From the NCBI GenBank assembly GCA_963974055.1, contig CAXBCP010000001.1:191471-255470 (forward strand): a DNA stretch of 64,000 nt, written 5' to 3'. A model generated the notes under the pieces. The model did not search any database, had not been told where the DNA came from, and was given only the letters and a program-made list of their open reading frames with translations. Made by a program: the position numbers and the translations under genes. Source of the DNA: an uncultured Rhodospirillaceae bacterium (GTDB taxonomy: Bacteria > Pseudomonadota > Alphaproteobacteria > MPNO01 > UBA830). Within the stretch, counting starts at the first letter, position 1, and every line of letters starts with the position of its first letter. Shown here piece by piece: positions 8,263 to 62,112 of the stretch.

Positions 8263-8563
8263 TTTTGTTTCCTCCAGGGCTGCGCGCTTGCGGTTTTTTG
8301 CTTTCCGGCGCAGCGTTGAACACACAGAATAGGGCGCTCCGACCGGAGACCCCGTCGAAGACAACTTACTCAGAAGCGTTTTTTTGAAATTCGAATTCGG
8401 TTGCGTCGTCAATTTCATCGTCCCTTCGCCGGCATTATCCGGTGCAGGTTCCAGGAGTCGTTCGCTTGCCGAACCTCTCAGCCGCATATGGCGGCTCCCC
8501 CCGATGGAAGACCGGATTATGCGCGGGCGGATTTGAGATGACAAGTCAGGAATAAAATTTTCG

Positions 8564-25418: not shown

Positions 25419-25554
25419 ACCAATTAATCGCGGGAAATTTCTTCAGAAGCCGGATTGCACGAGACACTTTTGTTATCGTGAGGGTTGATTTCATATCCGG
25501 CCAGTGCCGACAGAATATTAATTGCTGTGGCGCGGTCCGCTTCCGGTACCGGGG
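25419..25554 (-). repeat. right direct repeat of the island (native 3' end of marR)
   Basis: Partner of 20797-20928; see that entry. Continuous with the intact MarR CDS. Confidence 0.75.
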
Positions 25555-25912
25555 CCAGTATCCGGCGTTGGGCCCGATCGGCGGCCTCGAACGCTGATTC
25601 GAGTGCCAGGCGTCCCTCCTCGGTCAGGAACAGGGCGTTGGCGCGCTGGTCCGCCGGGGTTCGCGACCTGGATATCATCCCCCGGTCGACCATGCGGCGA
25701 AGAACTTCAGTCAGAGTGCTGCGGTCTATCCCGCTTGCTTCCACCAGGGCGGTCTGGCTCAGTCCCGGATTCTGAAAGACGCTGATCAGGACCGCAAATT
25801 GTCGTGGGTTCGGACCGTTTTCACCGACTTCTTCACAGAACAGATCGACCGCCCGCTGCTGGCACCGTCGTATCAAGTGGCCGGCGACCGAATCGAGCTC
25901 AAAGTTCTTCAT
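25424..25912 (-). CDS. MarR family transcriptional regulator
   Basis: 162 aa from MKNFELDSVAGHLIRRCQQRA. The winged-HTH core is FAVLISVFQNPGLSQTALVEASGIDRSTLTEVLRRM. Divergent from the LLM monooxygenase gene. The ORF-track 276-aa extension is rejected. Confidence 0.8.
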   Translation of the reverse strand: MKNFELDSVAGHLIRRCQQRAVDLFCEEVGENGPNPRQFAVLISVFQNPGLSQTALVEASGIDRSTLTEVLRRMVDRGMISRSRTPADQRANALFLTEEGRLALESAFEAADRAQRRILAPVPEADRATAINILSALAGYEINPHDNKSVSCNPASEEISRD

Positions 25913-26151
25913 GGATTGTTCGAGCGTATCGGCCAAGGCGGGACCACCTGATTTCTGACGGCTGCAAATTCTGTTTCGAGAGTCTATGGGAATGCATTTC
26001 ATCTGTACACGGATTAGTCGTCGGTGTAGGGTCGCGCCCCTCTGGAACAACGATTCCGGGCGGACGTTTTCGAGCGTGGGACATAACCTGGAGCCCGCCG
26101 GCATAGCCCGAAAGCTGCGCACATACGGGCAATAATTACGGGGAGAGCGAC

Positions 26152-45091: not shown

Positions 45092-46353
45092 GCGACGCTC
45101 CCGAAGCCAGGAAACGCGAAAAACCGAAACCGGTCACGGCGCCGATAGAACAGTTCCCGGTCGAGAACGGGGACCTTGTCATCGGCGGCGTGCCGTTATC
45201 CCGTCTGGCCCGTCAGATCGGGGCGACGCCGTTTTTCGCCTATGACCGCGATCTGATCTCGCAACGGATCGCCCATCTGCGCGAAATCCTGCCCGATGGC
45301 GTGAACCTGAATTTCGCGATGAAGGCGAACCCCATGCCGGCCGTCGTGCAGCATGCCGCGGGACTGGTCGACGGAATTGACGTCGCCTCCGCCCTCGAAA
45401 TGAACGTGGCGCTCGACACCACCATGCCGCGCCATCGCATCAGTTTCGCCGGGCCCGGCAAGACCGAGGCGGAGATCGCGCGCGCCGTAGCGGCGGGGAT
45501 CGTGCTCAATCTTGAATCCGCGAACGAAATGGAAATCGTTGCCCGCCACGCCGCGGAACAGGGTGTCGTGGCGCCGGTCGCCGTTCGGGTGAATCCGGAT
45601 TTCGAACTCAAGACGTCCGGCATGAGGATGAGCGGCGGGCCGAAGCAGTTCGGTGTCGATGCCGAATGCGTGCCCGACATGCTCCGGCGCATGGGCGAAC
45701 TGCCGACCCTGGAATTTCATGGCTTTCATATATTCAGCGGTTCGCAGAATCTGCGGGCGGAAGCGCTGATCGAAGCCCAGACGAACACGGTCGATCTTGC
45801 AATCGCGCTGGCGGCCGTTGCGCCCGGACCCGTAAGACACCTCAATATCGGCGGCGGGTTCGGCATCCCGTATTTCCCCGGCGACACGCCGCTCGACCTC
45901 ACGCCGGTTGCCGAGAATCTCGACGGATTGATGGCGCGGATCAAAACCGAGCTGGGCGATGTCCGCGTCGTTATCGAACTCGGACGCTATATCGTCGGCG
46001 AGGCCGGCATCTATGTCAGCCGGATCGTCGACCGCAAGGAATCGCGCGGAAAGGTATTCCTGATCACCGATGGCGGGCTGCATCATCAGCTCGCTGCATC
46101 GGGCAATTTCGGGCAGGTGATCCGGAAGAACTATCCCGTCGCGATCGGCAATCGCATGGACGAGCCGGCGACCGAAACCGCGGACATCGTCGGCTGTTTG
46201 TGCACGCCGCTCGATCTTCTCGGCGACAAGGTGGACATACCGGCGGCCGCGGTCGGCGACCTTGTGGTGCTGTTTCAGTCGGGCGCCTATGGGCTGACGG
46301 CCAGTCCCACGGCTTTTCTCAGCCATCCGGTGCCGCTCGAGGTGCTGGTTTGA
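45088..46353 (+). CDS. PLP-dependent decarboxylase, Orn/DAP/Arg decarboxylase fold-III family
   Basis: GTG start overlaps the ligase stop (GTGA). Motifs as in diaminopimelate decarboxylase: NFAMKANP with the PLP-lysine, GGGFGIPY, and the C-terminal CTPLD. Confidence 0.85.
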   Translation: MSDAPEARKREKPKPVTAPIEQFPVENGDLVIGGVPLSRLARQIGATPFFAYDRDLISQRIAHLREILPDGVNLNFAMKANPMPAVVQHAAGLVDGIDVASALEMNVALDTTMPRHRISFAGPGKTEAEIARAVAAGIVLNLESANEMEIVARHAAEQGVVAPVAVRVNPDFELKTSGMRMSGGPKQFGVDAECVPDMLRRMGELPTLEFHGFHIFSGSQNLRAEALIEAQTNTVDLAIALAAVAPGPVRHLNIGGGFGIPYFPGDTPLDLTPVAENLDGLMARIKTELGDVRVVIELGRYIVGEAGIYVSRIVDRKESRGKVFLITDGGLHHQLAASGNFGQVIRKNYPVAIGNRMDEPATETADIVGCLCTPLDLLGDKVDIPAAAVGDLVVLFQSGAYGLTASPTAFLSHPVPLEVLV

Positions 46354-48233
46354 CGGGACTCGTCGGATGGGCCGGCGCGGGTCGGTCGGGCGACCACGTT
46401 TACGAGCTTTCTTCCCCCGATATCGTCGCCCGGATGCTCGATGCCGGACATGCGCATGAAGGATCGGCACGGCAGTCGGAAGCGGTTGCCGCTGCCGGTA
46501 TCGGCGCGCAGGGCTGGTCGTCCGACGTTTCCGTGCACAGCGCCGGGGATATCCTTGCCGTCGTTTACGGCCGGGCGCGGTGGCGCGGCGAAAAATACAG
46601 GCAGCGTGCGGTCGCGCAGGGCGGCGCAGCGGCCCTTATCGAAGCCTGGCGCGACAAGGGAATATCGCTGTTCGATATTGTCGGCGGTCCGGCGTCTTTT
46701 GCGATCGTCGATTCCGCCCGGCATGAAGCGCTGGTCGCTATCGATCGTATCGGTGTCCAGCAGATGTCGTTTGCAACAACCCCTGCCGGGGCATTTGTCT
46801 TTGCATCCGATGCGCGGGCTGTCTGCAGTCATCCGGCGCTCAACCCGGATATTTCCCGTCAGGCATTGTTCAATTATCTCTATTTTTATATCAGCCCGGG
46901 ACCGGCAACGGTTTTCGAGGATATCGAAAAGCTCCAGCCCGGACAGTATGCCCATTTCCGCAACGGCGCGGTGTCGCGGTCGTTCTATTGGCAGCCCGCA
47001 TATACCGAATTCTCCGACCGCGATGACGGGGCCTGTGCCGAGCAGGTGCGCGACAGCCTGAGGGACGGTGTCGGGGCGGCGGTGGCCGCGGTTCCCGGTG
47101 CAGAGCCGGGCGCCTTTCTGAGCGGCGGGCTCGACAGCACGTCGGTTGCGGGTTATCTGGCCGGCCACCGGCCCGGGGCGAAGGGTTTCACGATCGCCTT
47201 CCCGGAAGAAAAATACAACGAACTGCCCTGGGCGGAGGCGGGTGCCCGGCGGTTCGGCATTGATCATGTCACACATGTGCTGACGCCGGCGGAAACGGTG
47301 GACGCGATTCCGGGAATCGTCGAGGCGCATGACGAACCCTATGGCAACTCGTCGTCCGTGCCGGCTTATATCTGTGCGCGGGTGGCGCGGGATAACGGGG
47401 TCGGGCTTCTGCTTGCCGGCGACGGCGGCGACGAAATATTCGCCGGAAACGAGCGCTACGTCGAGCAGCGCCGCTACGATGCATGGCGCCGTATCCCGTC
47501 ACCGTTCCGCAGGTTACTGCACGGACTGCTGCTCAACGGGGCCGGCCGCAATACGGGCGACGGCGTGCTGGCGCGGGCCACCGCCTATGCAAACCGGGCG
47601 GAGACACCGCTGCCCGACAGGCTGCAGGCTTACAACATCATCGCGACATCTGGATTGTCGCGTCTGTTCCATCCCGATTTCCTGGCGGCGATCGACCCCG
47701 GAGAGCCGCTGCGGATCGCGCGCGAGATCTATCACCGGCCCGACGGCGCTACGGAGCTGAAACGTATGCAGTTTCTCGATCTCCACATAACGCTTGCGGA
47801 TAACGATCTGAGGAAGGTCAACAGGGCGTGCGAGCTCGCCGGCGTCCGCGTCGCCTATCCGATGCTTGACGAAGACCTCGTTTCGTTTGCGGCGGCGATC
47901 CCGTCGGCAACGTTGTTGCCCCAGCGCCGGCTGCGCGGCTTCTACAAGGACACGATGGCAGGGTTTTTGCCGCCGGAAATTCTGAGCAAACAAAAGCACG
48001 GCTTCGGCATGCCGTTTTCCGAATGGACCCGCGCGCCGGGCGATCTTCGCGATATGGCCGAAGAGGGGCTTCGGGCTTTTGCGACCCGCGATATTCTTGC
48101 GGACGGGATTATCGACGAGATCCGGTCCGATCTGACCGGCGTCCGAGAAAGCCGGTTCGGCGGGCTGATCTGGGACGTCATGATGCTGGAATTGTGGCTG
48201 TCGCGTCATTCAGATATTGCGACACTACATTGA
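46350..48233 (+). CDS. asparagine synthase (AsnB) family protein lacking the N-terminal catalytic cysteine
   Basis: TTG start overlaps the decarboxylase stop (TTGA). The N-terminus is (M)TGLVGWAG; canonical AsnB begins MCGIAGW. The C-terminal synthetase domain is intact (FLSGGLDSTSV PP-loop, ELPWAE..., YKDTMAGFLPPEIL). The 855-aa ORF-track frame is the same reading frame read through the preceding gene. Confidence 0.7.
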   Translation: MTGLVGWAGAGRSGDHVYELSSPDIVARMLDAGHAHEGSARQSEAVAAAGIGAQGWSSDVSVHSAGDILAVVYGRARWRGEKYRQRAVAQGGAAALIEAWRDKGISLFDIVGGPASFAIVDSARHEALVAIDRIGVQQMSFATTPAGAFVFASDARAVCSHPALNPDISRQALFNYLYFYISPGPATVFEDIEKLQPGQYAHFRNGAVSRSFYWQPAYTEFSDRDDGACAEQVRDSLRDGVGAAVAAVPGAEPGAFLSGGLDSTSVAGYLAGHRPGAKGFTIAFPEEKYNELPWAEAGARRFGIDHVTHVLTPAETVDAIPGIVEAHDEPYGNSSSVPAYICARVARDNGVGLLLAGDGGDEIFAGNERYVEQRRYDAWRRIPSPFRRLLHGLLLNGAGRNTGDGVLARATAYANRAETPLPDRLQAYNIIATSGLSRLFHPDFLAAIDPGEPLRIAREIYHRPDGATELKRMQFLDLHITLADNDLRKVNRACELAGVRVAYPMLDEDLVSFAAAIPSATLLPQRRLRGFYKDTMAGFLPPEILSKQKHGFGMPFSEWTRAPGDLRDMAEEGLRAFATRDILADGIIDEIRSDLTGVRESRFGGLIWDVMMLELWLSRHSDIATLH

Positions 48234-48299
48234 TCGTTTGCTTTTTGGGGCTATTATGCAGCCCGACATTTGGTGAGTTACGTTTGGTCGCGACAAAAA

Positions 48300-48935
48300 A
48301 TGGTGGGCGAAATGTTGTGGAATAGGTTTGGCGGAGCGCTGATGGTGCTGTGCGTGGCGGCTCTGGCAGGCTGTTCCTCGCTTGAGGAACTTCCGACGGC
48401 AAAGCCCGTTTCCGAGACGGAAGAGCTCGAGACCGAATACCGGATCGGCTCCGACGATTCGCTTCAGATATTCGTCTGGCGGAACCCGGAACTGTCGAAC
48501 AGCGTTGCGGTGCGTCCCGACGGCAAGATAACTATTCCGTTGATCGAGGACCTGCCTGCGACCGGCAAGACGCCGACCGAGCTGGCCCGCGATATCGAGA
48601 AACAGCTCAGCGTTTATATTCAGGACCCCATCGTCACCGTCATTATGCGGGGATTTGTCGGTCTGCCGAAGGACAGGGTCCGGGTCGTCGGCGAAGCGGC
48701 GCAGCCCCAGGCGCTGCCATACCGGTCGACGATGACGTTGCTCGATATCATGATCTCCGTCGGCGGGCTTACCGATTTTGCCGATGGCAACCGCGCCACC
48801 ATATCGCGGCTGGTCGACGAGGACTTGAAGCAGTTCCGGGTGCGGATCGACGACCTGCTTCGCGCCGGCGACATGTCGGCGAATGTCCGGATCATGCCGG
48901 GCGACGTTATCGTTATCCCCGAAGCGTGGTTCTGA
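48300..48935 (+). CDS. polysaccharide export outer-membrane lipoprotein (Wza/EpsE-like, PEP-CTERM-locus type)
   Basis: Lipoprotein signal ...VLCVAALAGC. Poly_export motif YRIGSDDSLQIFVW...PDGKITIPLI. A SLBB domain follows. Start could be ATG 48300 or 48312. Confidence 0.8.
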   Translation: MVGEMLWNRFGGALMVLCVAALAGCSSLEELPTAKPVSETEELETEYRIGSDDSLQIFVWRNPELSNSVAVRPDGKITIPLIEDLPATGKTPTELARDIEKQLSVYIQDPIVTVIMRGFVGLPKDRVRVVGEAAQPQALPYRSTMTLLDIMISVGGLTDFADGNRATISRLVDEDLKQFRVRIDDLLRAGDMSANVRIMPGDVIVIPEAWF

Positions 48936-49428
48936 TCCGACAGGACGGTGCCGTTGGCTGCAAAAATGTTGCAGTTTGTTGCAGCGATATCCATCTCCCA
49001 TTCTGCGCGGCTTTCCGTTTGCATATATATTACATGATTGGAAATTGTGTCCTGACGGTGAAAGTTGCATAAGCTGTTGATAAACAACAATATTCTGGGG
49101 CTGTTGGCTACCGCCCCGGCGCGGCGTTCCGGCCGGCCGCGGGGGCGACCGTCTCTCTTCATGGTTAACGGCGGCCCGATCATGTTATTGAATTTGTAGA
49201 GAATTGTTGCTAGTTTACGAATTGTAGGGTGATAGTGGGTTAGATGTGGACAGCTATCTATCTAGGTGAACTGGGCGCTGGCTGAATATCGGCGGCGCTC
49301 GCGTATTTGAGTAGGCAATGTGGTGTGTAGAGTGTCTGGGATCCGCGTATTGCGAATGAATGGGCCACGGAAGCAAGGCGTCCGTCGGTCGGCAGTTGTC
49401 TTAAGCCGTAAGTGGGGGGGGCACGTAG
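48936..49428. promoter_or_regulatory. 493-bp AT-rich intergenic region upstream of epsF with direct repeats (candidate regulatory region)
   Basis: GTTGCAG occurs twice, 3 nt apart, at 48964-48980. A TTGCATATATATTACATGA element lies at 49017-49035. Direct repeats GAATTTGTAGAG and GAATTGTAGGG occur at 49190-49201 and 49219-49229. A G8 tract precedes the epsF ATG. Confidence 0.3.
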
Positions 49429-51051
49429 ATGAGTGAATTATACGTACAAATCCTCGCTTATCTTACGTCTATCTGGCGCAGGCGGTGGTATGCGCTCGCA
49501 ATTTCTTGGCTGGTCTGCGGTGCCGGCTGGACAATGGTTGCCGGCCTTCCCGACAAGTATGAATCCCAGGCCCGTGTTTATGTCGACATGGATACGATGC
49601 TTGGCCCGCTGATGAAGGGCATCGCGGTCCAGGTCAACATGTTCCAGCAGATCGACATCATGCAGCGTACGCTGCTGAGCCGCCCCAATCTTGAAAAGGT
49701 CATTCTGATGACCGACCTCGACCTCAAGATAAAATCGGAAGGCGAGAAAGAAGCGCTGATCGAGAAACTCGCGAATTCGATTTCGATTCGCCAGCAGGGT
49801 CGCAACCTGTTCCGGGTCGCCTATGACGACCGTGAGCCCGCGATCACAAAGCGCGTCGTTCAGGCGGTGTTGCAGATTTTCGTCGAGAGTAATCTGGGGT
49901 CCAGCCGAAAGGATATGGATTCCACGCGGCGTTTCCTGTCCGACCAGATCAAGGATTACGAACGCCAGCTCGAACTTGCGGAAAACAAACTCGCGACCTT
50001 CAAACGCAAAAATCTCGGCATGCTCCCCGGCGAGGGAAACTATTATTCGCACATGCAGGCCATGCGGGCGCAGCACAAGCGTACCGAAGCCCAGATTGCG
50101 GAGGCATCGACCGTTCGCGACGAACTGAAGCAGCAACTGACTTCTGTGCCGCAGTTTCTCGAACTCGCGGGCGGCATGCCCGATATCGCGCTTGCGTCCT
50201 CTGCGGGGGAAGGTCCCGAATCGGATACCCAGATCAGGATCTTCGAGTTGCAGAAGGTCGTCGACAATCTGTTGACGCGCTACACCGACAAACATCCCGA
50301 TGTGGCAACCACGATCAAGCGGCTTGAGGTTCTCAAGAAAGAGCTTGCCGACGAACGCAAGGCCGAATTCGGCCCGACCGATCAGGCGCCCGTCGAACAG
50401 GCGGCTGAAGCCGGCAAGAACGTGGTGCCCAATCCGGTCTACGAACAGGTCAAGATACAGCTCGTCCAGCAGGAGGCGGCGATTGCCGCGTTCAAGCGGC
50501 GCGCCGAAAAGGAAGGCGTCGACGTTAAAAAGTGGGAACAGCTGGCCGGCCGCGTGCCGCAGGTCGAGGCCGAGCTTTCCCGGCTCTCGCGCGATTACGA
50601 AATCGTCAAGAGAGGTTACGAGGAATTGCGCCAGCGGCAGGAATCTGCCCGGCTTGCTTCGGACATGGAAACAAAGGCGCAAAAGGTCCAGTTCCGCATT
50701 GTCGATCCGCCCAAGCTTCCGCTTAAGCCCAGCGGTCCCAACCGGCCTCTTTTCATGGCCGTGGTCCTTGTTGCCGGACTCGGCGCCGGACTGGCATTTG
50801 CCTTCCTGCTGGGACAGGTCAATTCGACCTTCCAGACGGTGCAGCGCCTGCGCCTGACCTTCGCTCTGCCGGTGCTGGGTTGTGTGACCGCAATTACGTC
50901 GGTCGGCGAACGCCGCCGCCGGCGTCGCGAGTTGCTCGGTTTCGGGCTGGTTGCGGCAAGCTTGATCGTTGCTTTCGGTGGGCTCCTCATGGTTGAAGTT
51001 ATGGGGGCAAATGGCTTGCTAGCGACCGTCAAGGGGCTTAGCATCGTCTAA
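49429..51051 (+). CDS. polysaccharide chain length determinant protein (Wzz/EpsF-like, PEP-CTERM locus subfamily)
   Basis: 540 aa. An N-terminal TM (WYALAISWLVCGAGWTMVAGL) is followed by a long coiled-coil periplasmic region and a C-terminal TM (LFMAVVLVAGLGAGLAFAFLLG). Confidence 0.8.
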   Translation: MSELYVQILAYLTSIWRRRWYALAISWLVCGAGWTMVAGLPDKYESQARVYVDMDTMLGPLMKGIAVQVNMFQQIDIMQRTLLSRPNLEKVILMTDLDLKIKSEGEKEALIEKLANSISIRQQGRNLFRVAYDDREPAITKRVVQAVLQIFVESNLGSSRKDMDSTRRFLSDQIKDYERQLELAENKLATFKRKNLGMLPGEGNYYSHMQAMRAQHKRTEAQIAEASTVRDELKQQLTSVPQFLELAGGMPDIALASSAGEGPESDTQIRIFELQKVVDNLLTRYTDKHPDVATTIKRLEVLKKELADERKAEFGPTDQAPVEQAAEAGKNVVPNPVYEQVKIQLVQQEAAIAAFKRRAEKEGVDVKKWEQLAGRVPQVEAELSRLSRDYEIVKRGYEELRQRQESARLASDMETKAQKVQFRIVDPPKLPLKPSGPNRPLFMAVVLVAGLGAGLAFAFLLGQVNSTFQTVQRLRLTFALPVLGCVTAITSVGERRRRRRELLGFGLVAASLIVAFGGLLMVEVMGANGLLATVKGLSIV

Positions 51052-51066: not shown

Positions 51067-52905
51067 TTGACCGATAATGATTCACCGCGTCGCGGGGCGA
51101 CCGAGGGCGGAAATTCTTCTTCGCCCCCATCTTCGTCTGTTGAAAAAGCGGCCGAACGGATGACCCGTGATCCCGGGGCAGACCGGAAAACAGGCGTTGG
51201 GAACGACTCTCCTCCGCAACGGCAGAACCCGGCGAGCAGCATAGAGCGTTTTCTGGATACGGCTGACGGCGGCGTCGCCGACGAGGGGCCCTCCGGCCCG
51301 GCCCGGTTCCAGGATCCCGGCGCCGACTCGGATGTGCCCGCCCGGAACACCCACATTCCGCAGGACGAGCCCGGACCCGGTTTGGATGCCGATTCAGCAT
51401 GGCGTGGTCCTGCCGCCGCCCCGCCTCCGCCACAGGGGCTTCCGGAGCATGGACAGCCGCCGCAATATGCGCCGCCGCCCGGGGCGGGAGATTCGTCTTA
51501 TCCGCAACCCAATCCGGAATCGGTGGAGGGGCCGCCTCCCGGTGCCCGGCCTGACGAGACGCCGCCTGCCGCTCCCGATTACCCCGAACATGCTCCGGCG
51601 CAGTCACCGGTAACGGATCCCGCGGCCGCTGCCGCGGCAGCGATGACCCCCGCCGTAAAACGGAAAGGACTGCTCAGGCGTCGGAGGAAAGCGACGAAGC
51701 CCTGGCATCGCGATCATGCCGCCGACGCGGCTTCAGCGGATGAGGCCGTCGGCAGCGTCCCGCCCGGCGATCCGCGCGATGTGGCACGTTCCGGCAACCC
51801 TGCCGCTGCTGCCGCTCCGCGCCGTCGTGGGATATTCGGTCTGTTCTGGGCCATGATCCGTTTTCTTCTGATCGGTAAAAAGCGCTTAAATGCGCCCAGG
51901 CCGGCCACACCCCGCGGCACGCCGCGTCTTCCGAAATTGGGGCGGCTCCCGGGGTTGTCGCGGCTCAGGGGCATGGGTATTCCCGTTTTGGCTCTTGCGG
52001 GGCGGGTGCCCGGATTCGGAAAGTTAAGACGATCCGCGGCTTCCGCTGTTTCCGCGGTATCAGACAGCGCGTCCGGAAACCCGCGTCCCGCGCCCGTCGA
52101 AACGGCAATGCAGATCCGGCGAAACGCGGCCGGGTCGCATATTCATCGGCCGCTCGATATGAGCCGGCGCGTTGGCCGGTCGGTCGAAATCGACCTCGAA
52201 AAGATCCAGGCGGCCGGCATGGTCACGCCGTTCGGCGAACGCACGCATATCGCGGAGGAATTCCGCCTTATCAAGCGCCCGCTCCTGCTGAACGCCTTCG
52301 AAAAAGGACCCAACGCCATCCGCAACGGGAATGTCATCATGGTCGCGAGTTCGCGTTCCGGTGAAGGCAAGACGTTCATGGCGGTGAACCTCGCCATGAG
52401 CATTGCTTCTGAACGCGATCTGACGGTTCTGTTGATCGACGCCGACGTTGCGAAACCCGATATTCCGAACGTTCTCGGGTTCGAAGCCGATCTCGGCCTA
52501 GTCGATCTGATTGCCGATGACCGCATCGATATGTCCGATGTGATCATGCGAACCAATATCGAGAATCTCAGCGTGATGCCGGCCGGCCGGCCACATCACC
52601 TCGCGACGGAACTGCTGGCCAGCGAACGGATGGGCAATCTGGTATCGGAGCTTTCCCTCCGGTATCCCGAGCGTGTCGTCATTATGGATTCCCCGCCCGC
52701 ATTGCTCAGCAGCGTGGCGGGAGTTTTGGCGCTCAATGTCGGCCAGACGTTGTTCGTCGTCGAGGCCGAGCGGACCTCCCAAACGGCGGTCGATAGTGCG
52801 ATAGGTCTTGTTAGTGCTTGCAAAAACATCAACCTCTTGCTCAATAAGAGTCGCCCGCTTGGGGGCGGCGAACGTTTTGGGTCCTATCAGAACAGCTACT
52901 ATTGA
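51067..52905 (+). CDS. BY-kinase-type P-loop ATPase (EpsG-like tyrosine autokinase) with ~330-aa proline-rich insert
   Basis: TTG start with a GGGGTAGG SD. N-terminal SSVEKAAERM motif. A proline-rich low-complexity region spans roughly aa 40-370. The C-terminal kinase has Walker A SRSGEGKTF, A' VLLIDADV, Walker B VIMDSPP, and a terminal Tyr cluster YQNSYY. Confidence 0.7.
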   Translation: MTDNDSPRRGATEGGNSSSPPSSSVEKAAERMTRDPGADRKTGVGNDSPPQRQNPASSIERFLDTADGGVADEGPSGPARFQDPGADSDVPARNTHIPQDEPGPGLDADSAWRGPAAAPPPPQGLPEHGQPPQYAPPPGAGDSSYPQPNPESVEGPPPGARPDETPPAAPDYPEHAPAQSPVTDPAAAAAAAMTPAVKRKGLLRRRRKATKPWHRDHAADAASADEAVGSVPPGDPRDVARSGNPAAAAAPRRRGIFGLFWAMIRFLLIGKKRLNAPRPATPRGTPRLPKLGRLPGLSRLRGMGIPVLALAGRVPGFGKLRRSAASAVSAVSDSASGNPRPAPVETAMQIRRNAAGSHIHRPLDMSRRVGRSVEIDLEKIQAAGMVTPFGERTHIAEEFRLIKRPLLLNAFEKGPNAIRNGNVIMVASSRSGEGKTFMAVNLAMSIASERDLTVLLIDADVAKPDIPNVLGFEADLGLVDLIADDRIDMSDVIMRTNIENLSVMPAGRPHHLATELLASERMGNLVSELSLRYPERVVIMDSPPALLSSVAGVLALNVGQTLFVVEAERTSQTAVDSAIGLVSACKNINLLLNKSRPLGGGERFGSYQNSYY

Positions 52906-60177: not shown

Positions 60178-62112
60178 ATGTGCGGAATTACAGGCCTGTT
60201 CGACACCGTCGGTCGCAGCGAGATCGATCGCGGTTTGTTGACGCGCATGAATGACAGCCATCGTCACAGGGGCCCGGACGGAGACGGTGTGTTCCTGGAC
60301 GACGGTATCGGCCTGGGACACCGCCGGCTTTCGATTATCGACCTTTCGGGCGGCGCGCAGCCGTTGTTCAACGAAGACGAATCCGTCGTCGTCGTCTTTA
60401 ACGGCGAGATCTATAATTTTCAGGAGCTTTCCAAGGAGCTGATCGAAGCCGGTCACCGGTTCCGGACCCACAGCGACACCGAAGTCATCGTGCATGCCTG
60501 GGAAGAATGGGGACAGGCCTGCGTCGACCGTTTCCGCGGCATGTTCGCCTTTGCGCTTTGGGACCGGAAGAAAGAAACGCTGTTCCTGGTGCGCGACCGT
60601 CTCGGGATCAAGCCCCTGTATTATGCGGTCCTCCCCAACGGGACCCTTATTTTCGGTTCCGAGCTGAAATCGCTGCTGCTGCATCCGGCCTTCGAGCGGA
60701 AACTGGACCCGACCGCGGTCGAGGAGTATTTCGCCTATGGATACGTTCCCGACCCGAAAACCATCTATGCCGGCGCGCACAAGCTTGCTCCCGGCCATCT
60801 GATCAAGTGGCGCCGGGGCGACAGCCGCCCGCGGCCGCAAAAGTACTGGGATATCAGCTTCGATCCGTCGGACCACCGGGACGAAGGCGAAATCTGCGAA
60901 GACCTGATCGAACAGATGCGCGAAGCGGTAAAACTGCGGATGATCGCCGATGTGCCGCTCGGCGCGTTCCTGTCCGGCGGGGTGGATTCCAGCGCCGTTG
61001 TCGCGATGATGGCGGGCGAGGACAGCGATCCGGTGAATTCCTGCTCGATATCCTTCGCAGACCCGAAGTTCGACGAATCCCGATATGCCCAGACGGTGGC
61101 CGACCGGTACGGAACGGATCATTTCGTCGACCAGGTCGATCCCGACGCCTTCGATCTCGTAGACCGTCTGGCGAATATGTATGACGAACCGTTCGCGGAT
61201 TCATCCGCGATGCCGACTTACCGGGTATGCGAACTGGCCCGCAAACGGGTTACCGTCGCCCTTTCCGGCGATGGCGGCGACGAAATCTTCGCCGGTTACC
61301 GCCGCTACCGATGGCATGATTATGAGGAACGGGTCAGAGGGATTTTACCCGATGCGATCCGCAAGCCGCTCTTCGGGTTTCTCGGCGCCGCCTATCCGAA
61401 AATGGATTGGGCGCCGAAACCGCTGCGGGCGAAATCGACCCTTCAGGCGATCGGGCGCGATACGGTAGGCGGTTTTTTCCACAGCGTGTCCGTGTTGTAC
61501 GACGGCGTCCGGCAGCCCATCTACAGCGATGCGTTTCGCAACGATCTCCAAGGGTACCACGCGCGGGAGGTGCTCGATAACGTCATGGCAGATGCGCCGG
61601 CCGACGACCATACGTCCCGCGTGCAATACGCCGATCTCAAGACCTATTTGCCGGGCGATATTCTGACCAAGGTCGACCGGGCGAGCATGGCACATTCGCT
61701 GGAAGTGCGTGTGCCGTTGCTCGATCACAAATTCGTCGAATGGTCGGCGCGGCTTCCGTCCGCGCTCAAGCTGCGTGGCCGCGAAGGGAAGTATATTTTC
61801 AAGAAAGCGCTGGAACCGCATCTCGGCAATGACATCCTCTACCGTTCCAAGATGGGATTTTCCGTACCGCTGGGCACCTGGTTCAGGGGACCGCTCAGGG
61901 AACGGGTCGAGACGGCGCTGTGCGGAGAGACACTGGCGGATACGGGCATGTTCGACGTAAACCAGTTGAAGACAATCGTTTCCGAGCACCAGTCGGGCGT
62001 GCGCGAACATTCTGCGGTCATGTGGGCGCTGCTGATGTTTGAGAGTTTTCTCCGGCAGGTGCACAATGAGGCTGGAATACCGGAAAATGTTTCGAACCCG
62101 GCGGATGCCTGA
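60178..62112 (+). CDS. asnB: asparagine synthase (glutamine-hydrolysing), XrtA/PEP-CTERM system amidotransferase type
   Basis: Starts MCGITGLFD with the Cys2 nucleophile. PP-loop FLSGGVDSSAV. 644 aa. Confidence 0.9.
   Translation: MCGITGLFDTVGRSEIDRGLLTRMNDSHRHRGPDGDGVFLDDGIGLGHRRLSIIDLSGGAQPLFNEDESVVVVFNGEIYNFQELSKELIEAGHRFRTHSDTEVIVHAWEEWGQACVDRFRGMFAFALWDRKKETLFLVRDRLGIKPLYYAVLPNGTLIFGSELKSLLLHPAFERKLDPTAVEEYFAYGYVPDPKTIYAGAHKLAPGHLIKWRRGDSRPRPQKYWDISFDPSDHRDEGEICEDLIEQMREAVKLRMIADVPLGAFLSGGVDSSAVVAMMAGEDSDPVNSCSISFADPKFDESRYAQTVADRYGTDHFVDQVDPDAFDLVDRLANMYDEPFADSSAMPTYRVCELARKRVTVALSGDGGDEIFAGYRRYRWHDYEERVRGILPDAIRKPLFGFLGAAYPKMDWAPKPLRAKSTLQAIGRDTVGGFFHSVSVLYDGVRQPIYSDAFRNDLQGYHAREVLDNVMADAPADDHTSRVQYADLKTYLPGDILTKVDRASMAHSLEVRVPLLDHKFVEWSARLPSALKLRGREGKYIFKKALEPHLGNDILYRSKMGFSVPLGTWFRGPLRERVETALCGETLADTGMFDVNQLKTIVSEHQSGVREHSAVMWALLMFESFLRQVHNEAGIPENVSNPADA

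Follow-up and report, generated by a model that had tools for sequence, protein, structure and literature searches.

Gene order and the 493-bp junction

The window, a 64,000-nucleotide stretch of DNA from an uncultured Rhodospirillaceae bacterium, carries an XrtA/PEP-CTERM exopolysaccharide locus in which two neighbouring genes stand unusually far apart. The exopolysaccharide export protein (48270–48935; NCBIfam TIGR03027, E = 7.5e-70, above the curated cut-off; epsE in the initial annotation) and the XrtA-system polysaccharide chain-length determinant (49429–51051; NCBIfam TIGR03007, E = 7.3e-162; epsF) are both encoded on the plus strand, to which all coordinates below refer unless stated otherwise. 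Between the stop codon of the exporter gene and the ATG at 49429 lie exactly 493 base pairs (bp; 48936–49428), the length already given in the initial annotation. We read this gap, with a probability of about 0.7, as an operon boundary inside the XrtA/PEP-CTERM locus, formed by a conserved internal promoter and a long leader.

Upstream of the gap lie genes for an exosortase-A-associated acyl-CoA ligase, a pyridoxal phosphate (PLP) decarboxylase and an asparagine-synthase-like (amidotransferase-like) protein, followed by the exporter, which is most likely the final gene of the upstream transcription unit. The chain-length determinant is most likely the first gene of the downstream unit and is followed by a tyrosine autokinase, a TIGR03016 outer-membrane protein, an ATPase and a deacetylase, and further downstream by a FemAB-family gene, a glycosyltransferase, XrtA fused to EpsI, and an amidotransferase. 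The start codon of the chain-length determinant appears to be right, because the TIGR03007 match (residues 7–523) covers model positions 2–497. In the open reading frame (ORF) list, the other junctions in the plus-strand gene run from 42475 to 64000 are overlaps or at most ~60 bp, in agreement with the 0–60 bp first described for almost all of them. The largest of them would be ~110 bp if the exporter start is placed at ~48342, as called by gene callers in a contig identical to the window.

The gap has a G+C content of 52.7%, compared with ~62% in its flanks. Values drop to 39–48% in 48950–49100 and 49150–49300 and rise to 62–65% in a block at 49050–49200, so that the earlier description of the gap as AT-rich is only partly right. 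The same 493 bp, including a run of eight G residues (G8), occur identically in two independent metagenome assemblies, and the gap sequence is therefore not an assembly artefact.

A repeat finder returned only two-copy families of 9–14 nucleotides (nt). Such short repeats alone are not beyond chance, and it is the comparison with relatives that shows which of them matter. The elements listed in the initial annotation are all present: a GTTGCAG pair (48968–48974 and 48978–48984), a near-palindrome TTGCATATATATTACATGA (49019–49037), direct repeats GAATTTGTAGAG and GAATTGTAGGG, and the G8 run just ahead of the ATG (49414–49421). The spacing of the direct repeats, given as ~22 bp, needs correction, as their starts are 29 nt apart with 17 nt between them. 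The GTTGCAG pair and the block with the first GAATTTGTAGAG copy are conserved, whereas the palindrome, which lies in unalignable spacer and is lineage-specific, and the G8 homopolymer are not.

Our comparison set consists of the same junction from 22 further loci (designated by L numbers), whose chain-length determinants are 36–96% identical to that of the window, together with two identical copies of the window. The relatives come mostly from exact-protein look-ups; a single-protein scan of a genome collection gave two loci. Where we count 22 loci, these are the window and 21 of the further loci, with L002, which lacks the junction, left out. The junction measures 230–577 bp in 21 of these 22 loci (chain-length determinants 51–100% identical). 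Most gaps are 367–577 bp long, and shorter ones are found in L022 (338 bp), L020 (278 bp) and L012 (230 bp); in L013, the most distant relative, the gap is only 22 bp. Most of the gap is unalignable even with relatives of 94–96% protein identity, which argues that the parts that are conserved are under selection. An alignment of 13 close relatives contains two such conserved islands, which we call A and B.

The closest named relative is a marine metagenome-assembled genome (MAG), 'uncultured Rhodospirillaceae', and several related contigs are Tara Oceans scaffolds. L001 (94% identity) is labelled as an 'uncultured Rhodospirillaceae' MAG and L002 (90% identity, a partial gene at a contig end) as a 'Paracoccaceae' MAG; these conflicting labels suggest mis-binning or transfer of the locus.

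A predicted promoter and its leader

Island B (49181–49219) is the best-conserved block of the gap and has the form of a sigma-70-type promoter on the plus strand. The predicted −35 element TTGAAT (49188–49193) is followed by a 17-nt spacer and a −10 element TAGTTT (49211–49216); the last three positions of the spacer, which begin 14 nt after the −35 hexamer, form an extended −10 element TGC (49208–49210). Across the 13 close gaps, TTATTGAA and a TA dinucleotide show little or no variation, and the same holds for the string GTTATTGAA near 49181–49219, with the TA placed 17 nt past the TTGAA(T/A) hexamer.

The consensus derived from 15 anchored non-redundant loci is TTGaa. - N14 - TGn - TAgtTt. 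TTG occupies the −35 position in 14 of the 15 loci (TGG in L014), the spacer is exactly 17 nt long in every one of them, and TGn precedes the −10 element in 12. At the −10 position itself we find TAGTTT, TAATTT, TAGTAA, TAGGTT and TATTTT. The distant lineages L007/L021, L009, L011, L010 and L020 all have TTG, a 17-nt spacer, TAGnTT and the TGn extension (5/5), and they share no other sequence around the promoter site.

The pattern is also rare. Its strict form occurs once in the 64-kb window, against 0.05 occurrences expected, and its loose form matches 18 times in 10 kb of gap sequence, compared with 3 matches in 387 kb elsewhere on both strands, a 198-fold enrichment. Island B was the sole block recovered by blastn of the whole gap against all loci, and a profile search with nhmmer placed it at the top of its matches, with nothing else found in the window or the loci. 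From the end of the −10 element to the ATG the distance is 212 nt in the window and 135–288 nt in the relatives. One GAATTTGTAGAG copy (49190–49201) sits in the promoter spacer and GAATTGTAGGG (49219–49229) at the predicted start site; the two are not conserved as a pair.

On the opposite strand, a generic promoter scan made its only call in the region, a minus-strand site at 49221–49250 (TCCACA-18-TACAAT) that overlaps the predicted plus-strand start site. L005 does not share its −10 element, and chance alone would produce about one site of this kind.

Transcription from island B would start at about 49221–49224 and give a predicted 5′ leader of ~206 nt (49223–49428). In the window this leader contains 38.8% G and 17.0% C, a GC skew of +0.39. 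Averaged over the 15 loci, the GC skew is 0.246 in the leader, 0.076 in the gap upstream of the promoter and ~0.01 in the coding sequence on either side. In 15/15 loci the leader has a higher skew than the gap upstream of the promoter (paired Wilcoxon p = 6e-5, for loci that are not fully independent), and the AT skew in the same loci is unchanged across the promoter. Because this sense-strand excess of G over C begins at island B, it independently supports a transcription start there. The termination factor Rho loads on C-rich, G-poor RNA, and the low C/G ratio would make the long untranslated RNA a poor Rho substrate.

Short patches within the leader are conserved. The first, GGGTGATAGTGGGT (49227–49240; family consensus GGGTC-N4-5-GTGGGT), overlaps the GAATTGTAGGG repeat. 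The second, TGGGATCCGCGTATTGCGAATGA (49336–49358; consensus TGGGATCAGCGT..GGTGG), lies ~85 nt 5′ of the ATG, and its GCGT and GG are invariant in eight close relatives. A third patch, GCCGGC, is found in the relatives ~35 nt ahead of the ATG. The G8 run (49414–49421) is positioned 7 nt before the ATG as the Shine-Dalgarno region of the chain-length determinant gene; its counterpart in the relatives reads GGTAGGGAGG, GGTAGGGGGG or GGTAGGGCG, so that no homopolymer is conserved. We considered G8 as a phase-variable tract and rejected the idea, as its length is the same in three assemblies and the run is interrupted in the relatives.

Sequences upstream of the promoter and in the surrounding locus

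Island A (GCTGCAAAAATGTTGCAGTTTGTTGCAGC, 48957–48985) contains tandem TGTTGCA half-sites (48967–48973 and 48977–48983) and an inverted copy (48957–48966). In the close group its consensus is AAATTTGTTGCAAATTGTTGC, made up of a pair of TTGTTGCA half-sites at a distance of 10 bp. Wherever a close relative has the island, it lies 20–57 nt past the exporter stop codon, and its distance to the promoter varies from ~85 to 215 bp. Among non-redundant gaps, 13 of 18 contain the 8-mer TTTGTTGC, compared with 1 of 18 coding controls. A third half-site, TTGTTGCTA (49204–49212), overlaps both the extended −10 and the −10 element in the window; at the corresponding position L001/L005 and L015 have TTGTTGCTA, and L004 has TTGTTGGTA. 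Island A is probably the operator of some DNA-binding regulator. The window shows no enrichment of the half-site TTGTTGCWA (10 matches, 13 expected). We also looked for further copies of island A, island B and the promoter profile, which would have pointed to a regulon; none turned up elsewhere in the window or the loci.

In the distant group we observe a palindromic motif of the type GCGTTG-TAAAT-CAACGC, for example GCGTTGTAAATCAACGC in L007/L021 and TTGTTGTAATACAATAA in L011. In gap coordinates it lies at 139–171 in L007, ~140–175 in L021, ~283–312 in L009, 103–123 in L011, 70–100 in L010 and ~140–172 in L022, and it is centred 76–78 nt upstream of the predicted start site. Such fixed phasing is typical of an activator site. 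L011 has three copies of TTGTTGTAA, one of which forms the −35 element. The half-sites of the close group and the palindromes of the distant group are putative binding sites of one regulator family; of the steps in our argument, this is the weakest.

Two other ideas about island A were dropped. Because TTGCAA is self-complementary, the island could form an RNA hairpin; the window, L006 and L014 retain this pairing, whereas uncompensated changes break it in L005/L001 and L008, and L016 and L003 lack it. The second idea was that island A is bound by a MarR-family regulator, whose gene lies in the polysaccharide locus (25424–25912, minus strand); the region upstream of this gene, at 25955–25985, contains GGCTGCAAATTCTGTTTCG and has GGCTGCAAA in common with island A. 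A pattern built from both sites appeared unique, yet the similarity is not significant: in an unbiased local-alignment ranking the MarR upstream region scored 9, about one standard deviation above the window mean of 7.7, with a maximum of 14. Literature searches returned only primers for the string TTGTTGCAA, and gave no motif in the text for NtrX.

Between the two islands, a G+C-rich hairpin (49106–49153; arms 49112–49121 and 49138–49147; predicted energy −28.2 kcal/mol) has the tail TCTCTTCATG and no T-run. It may act as a terminator or as an insulator ahead of the promoter. The window has a further, weak A/T-rich hairpin within island A. Five relatives (L023, L011, L015, L022 and L008) carry a canonical hairpin with a T-run directly after the exporter gene, which supports an operon boundary at this junction.

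The rest of the locus provides several observations of its own. In a C-terminal motif scan of all window ORFs no PEP-CTERM protein gene was found, and the XrtA locus otherwise looks complete. No match to PrsK, PrsR or PrsT appeared among the window ORFs scanned, which covered 1–21 kb in part. Any sorting substrates and classical regulators would thus have to be encoded in another part of the genome. The asparagine-synthase-like ORF (45666–48233) has 855 codons and overlaps the decarboxylase gene by ~690 nt; the calls in relatives are 606–630 residues long and the family match starts at residue 319, and the true start is probably near 46350. Its product scores 254 bits against the 817-bit cut-off of the XrtA amidotransferase family, and a true member of that family is encoded at 60178–62112. 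The locus therefore contains two different asparagine-synthase-type genes.

In the tyrosine-kinase ORF (51067–52905), only residues 386–593 correspond to the XrtA-associated autokinase domain. The first ~385 residues (51067–52220) are rich in Pro, Ala and Gly, of low complexity and without a family match, and are encoded by DNA of 70–74% G+C. The kinase is called with 248–268 residues on the identical contigs L024 and L025, 291–341 residues in the more distant L020–L023, and 529–724 residues in close relatives. Either this N-terminal extension forms a disordered domain specific to the lineage, or the chain-length determinant gene is followed by a second long stretch of non-coding DNA. Far from the gap, a thiamine pyrophosphate (TPP) riboswitch (RF00059, 74 bits, full length) at 8404–8511 on the minus strand is the only Rfam match of the window and presumably controls the minus-strand ORF that starts just downstream.

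A probable operon boundary and its alternatives

Our data suggest the following arrangement. Transcription of the upstream unit, which comprises the acyl-CoA ligase, the decarboxylase, the amidotransferase-like gene and the exporter, probably stops or declines at hairpins within the first half of the gap. From a housekeeping-type promoter whose −10 element is extended, a new transcript would then begin near 49221–49224, with a G-rich, C-poor and unstructured leader of ~206 nt that leads through a G-rich ribosome-binding site into the chain-length determinant gene. The same transcript would also cover the genes for the kinase, the outer-membrane protein and XrtA. The tandem TTGTTGCA repeat, of which a third copy overlaps the −10 element, would most likely serve as the operator of a DNA-binding regulator, and the low C/G ratio of the leader would disfavour Rho. 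The proposal in the initial annotation of an internal promoter or regulator-binding region with a leader is supported by phylogenetic footprinting, by the 17-nt spacing in 15 loci and by the G-rich leader. Its view that the region serves the export genes applies to the chain-length, kinase, assembly and exosortase genes downstream; the exporter itself lies upstream of the gap.

Several points weigh against this interpretation. TAGTTT agrees with TATAAT at only three of six positions, and the generic promoter scan therefore passed over the window site; in sigma-70 promoters a weak −10 element is commonly offset by a TGn extension. The promoter pattern was defined after the alignments had been viewed, and many of the loci are related. 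The sequence TTGAAA-N14-GCCTAT(T/C)T in L008 and L019 also resembles RpoH-type promoters. RpoH and RpoD motifs are similar in Sinorhizobium meliloti (PMC3616915). Whether the acting sigma factor is RpoD or of the RpoH type is uncertain, and both the start site and the promoter activity are predictions from sequence. Island A is absent in L019 and present as a single copy in L016 and L003, and as neither the island nor the promoter recurs in the window, the operator idea lacks regulon support. The terminator scan found no canonical intrinsic terminator in the window gap, so that transcripts may read through from the exporter gene in this organism.

The same lack of a canonical terminator would be expected if there were no internal promoter and one long transcript spanned the junction, with the conserved blocks acting as protein-binding or pause signals, for example an ops/JUMPstart-like site that recruits a specialised NusG paralog, by which polarity along the long polysaccharide operon would be relieved. 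Strings resembling GGTAG lend this some appeal, as they recall the ops element GGCGGTAG in the leaders of RfaH-dependent polysaccharide operons: TGGTAGTT stands at the '−10' position in many relatives, GGGTAGA at about +25 in L004, L006 and L003, and GGTAGGG at the ribosome-binding site. A G-rich, C-poor RNA would likewise fit Rho avoidance. We nevertheless consider a single transcript unlikely. The exact TTG-N17-TAG spacing in unrelated backgrounds is predicted by a promoter and not by a pause site, the 8-mer GGCGGTAG itself is not present, and the patch at +25 keeps GTGGGT, not GGTAG. The GC skew begins at island B rather than at the exporter stop codon, and the canonical terminators of the five relatives also speak against continuous transcription. 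A tblastn search detected no NusG/RfaH paralog in the window, though one may be encoded elsewhere in the genome. Less probable again is that the gap encodes a structured cis-regulatory RNA (a riboswitch, a thermometer or an antitermination RNA like that of the Bacillus eps cluster) or a small RNA, the latter having been raised in the initial annotation together with a leader. The leader length is kept at 135–288 nt, the patches GGGTC..GTGGGT and TGGGATCAGCGT..GGTGG are conserved, the strand-specific composition shows that the RNA strand matters, and the gap lies within a polysaccharide locus, like the Bacillus element. The covariance and structure searches that the initial annotation had proposed nevertheless gave null results. 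No Rfam 15 family reached its gathering threshold in the gap when the whole window was scanned, and at E ≤ 10 the interval 48700–49700 yielded chance-level matches to unrelated families, the best at 12–16 bits against thresholds of 50–90. The leader and the upstream half fold no more stably than shuffled sequences, at z = −0.45 and z = −0.68, respectively. RNAalifold predicted no conserved pairs for 10 whole leaders and for 8 trimmed 3′ halves, in alignments that are poor in their variable parts, so that a small local hairpin could escape it. The stretch between islands A and B, the only place for a small RNA, is unalignable at 94–96% protein identity.

Control by PrsR and sigma-54 through an enhancer-dependent region, as found upstream of PEP-CTERM genes, would suit an XrtA/PEP-CTERM locus, with island A as the repeated upstream motif, and weak GG-N10-GC matches do exist in the window, such as CGGCTTTCCGTTTGCA at 49008–49023. 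We regard it as very unlikely. Matches of at least 8 of 11 positions occur in only 5 of 22 gaps, at inconsistent positions, and none is conserved; a degenerate scan of the whole window is at chance (57 found, 60 expected). The site TGGCTGCAAAAATGTTGCA (48955–48973), which the initial annotation had already discarded, is wrongly spaced, with 15 rather than 12 nt from GG to GC, and the relatives do not keep its TGGC. The sequence of island A is TTGTTGCA(A), not ...TTTACA, and there is no conserved TTTACA at a fixed distance from GG/GC. The conserved block has −35/−10 geometry instead, the window ORFs scanned contain no PrsK, PrsR or PEP-CTERM protein gene, and the published sites precede genes for PEP-CTERM proteins, not for a chain-length determinant. 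Finally, the gap could hide a small protein gene or the remains of a lost one, given that it contains ORFs of 29–65 codons and that, for L003, a gene of 62 residues on the minus strand of the gap was predicted by one gene caller. This is barely credible: tblastx comparisons between gaps recover island B only, in several frames, on both strands and across stop codons, a pattern that points to conservation of DNA and not of protein. No upstream ORF is common beyond near-identical relatives, and indels in the gap are not in multiples of three.

The conserved features could together form a lineage-specific control module for the XrtA exopolysaccharide operons of marine Rhodospirillales-like bacteria, which would consist of an operator half and a leader half and stand in place of the PrsR/sigma-54 scheme. 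We offer this reading as possible but doubtful. The operator half would comprise TTGTTG(C/T)AA half-sites, in tandem after the exporter stop codon in the close group and palindromic at about −77 in the distant group. The leader half would be unstructured, 135–290 nt long and G-rich/C-poor, with its two conserved patches. It would work as RNA, being a signal for Rho evasion or processive antitermination, or else a platform for protein binding of an undescribed kind.

Relation to known systems and implications

The −10 element of rhizobial promoters is CTATAT, whereas the gap has TAGnTT with a TGn extension, and the lineage-wide G-over-C bias of the predicted leader is a second difference from the RpoD-type promoters of S. 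meliloti. The conserved TTG at −35, the 17-nt spacer and the degenerate TA...T at −10 are alike in both (PMC3616915). Alphaproteobacteria often have long leaders. S. meliloti has 1,041 genes with 5′ untranslated regions of more than 100 nt, the longest leaders being 309 nt (PMC3616915), which makes a leader of ~206 nt plausible in an alphaproteobacterium.

Large non-coding regions upstream of PEP-CTERM genes were described by Haft et al. in 2006 (PMC1569441). In these regions a 17-nt motif that terminates in TTTACA is repeated, with a sigma-54 site beyond a spacer of ~63 nt, and their occurrence correlates with that of PrsK, PrsR and PrsT (PMC1569441). This PEP-CTERM box and the present gap belong to the same XrtA/PEP-CTERM system, and both combine a large non-coding region with an upstream motif that can repeat. 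In contrast, the gap has a different motif and no conserved −24/−12 element, and its target is a chain-length determinant operon instead of a single-gene PEP-CTERM operon.

Further parallels are functional analogies only, because the defining sequences or structures of these systems are absent from the gap. In Enterobacteria, the ops element GGCGGTAG lies in the long leaders of RfaH-dependent polysaccharide operons. The gap resembles this JUMPstart/ops arrangement in having a long untranslated leader before a long polysaccharide operon, GGTAG strings and a likely need to escape Rho; it differs in that GGCGGTAG is missing, the GGTAG strings are not conserved in the leader and no NusG paralog turned up in the window. 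The eps-associated RNA (EAR) of Bacillus subtilis, which is curated in Rfam, lies between epsB and epsC. It too occupies a long intergenic region in an exopolysaccharide cluster beside chain-length and kinase genes, but the gap has neither an Rfam match nor a conserved secondary structure, and its conserved block has promoter geometry. The algD gene of Pseudomonas aeruginosa is preceded by far-upstream and promoter-proximal AlgR sites and has a leader of several hundred nucleotides. Similarly, the gap has the same short motif both far upstream (island A, ~240–255 bp before the predicted start site) and within the core promoter, and a long leader precedes an exopolysaccharide operon. Here the motif, the sigma factor and the organism are different, and binding of a regulator in the gap is a prediction.

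Internal promoters with long leaders are common in polysaccharide loci, and an arrangement of this kind would not surprise a specialist. At least this XrtA-locus junction gives no sign of the PrsR/sigma-54 arrangement described in 2006. If our reading is correct, the locus splits into at least two transcription units, one for precursor modification and the exporter and one running from chain-length control through the exosortase. The analysis provides a concrete predicted promoter, a start site and a candidate operator for a group of uncultured marine alphaproteobacteria, and the conserved excess of G over C in the leader may be used elsewhere as a simple compositional marker of a long untranslated leader.

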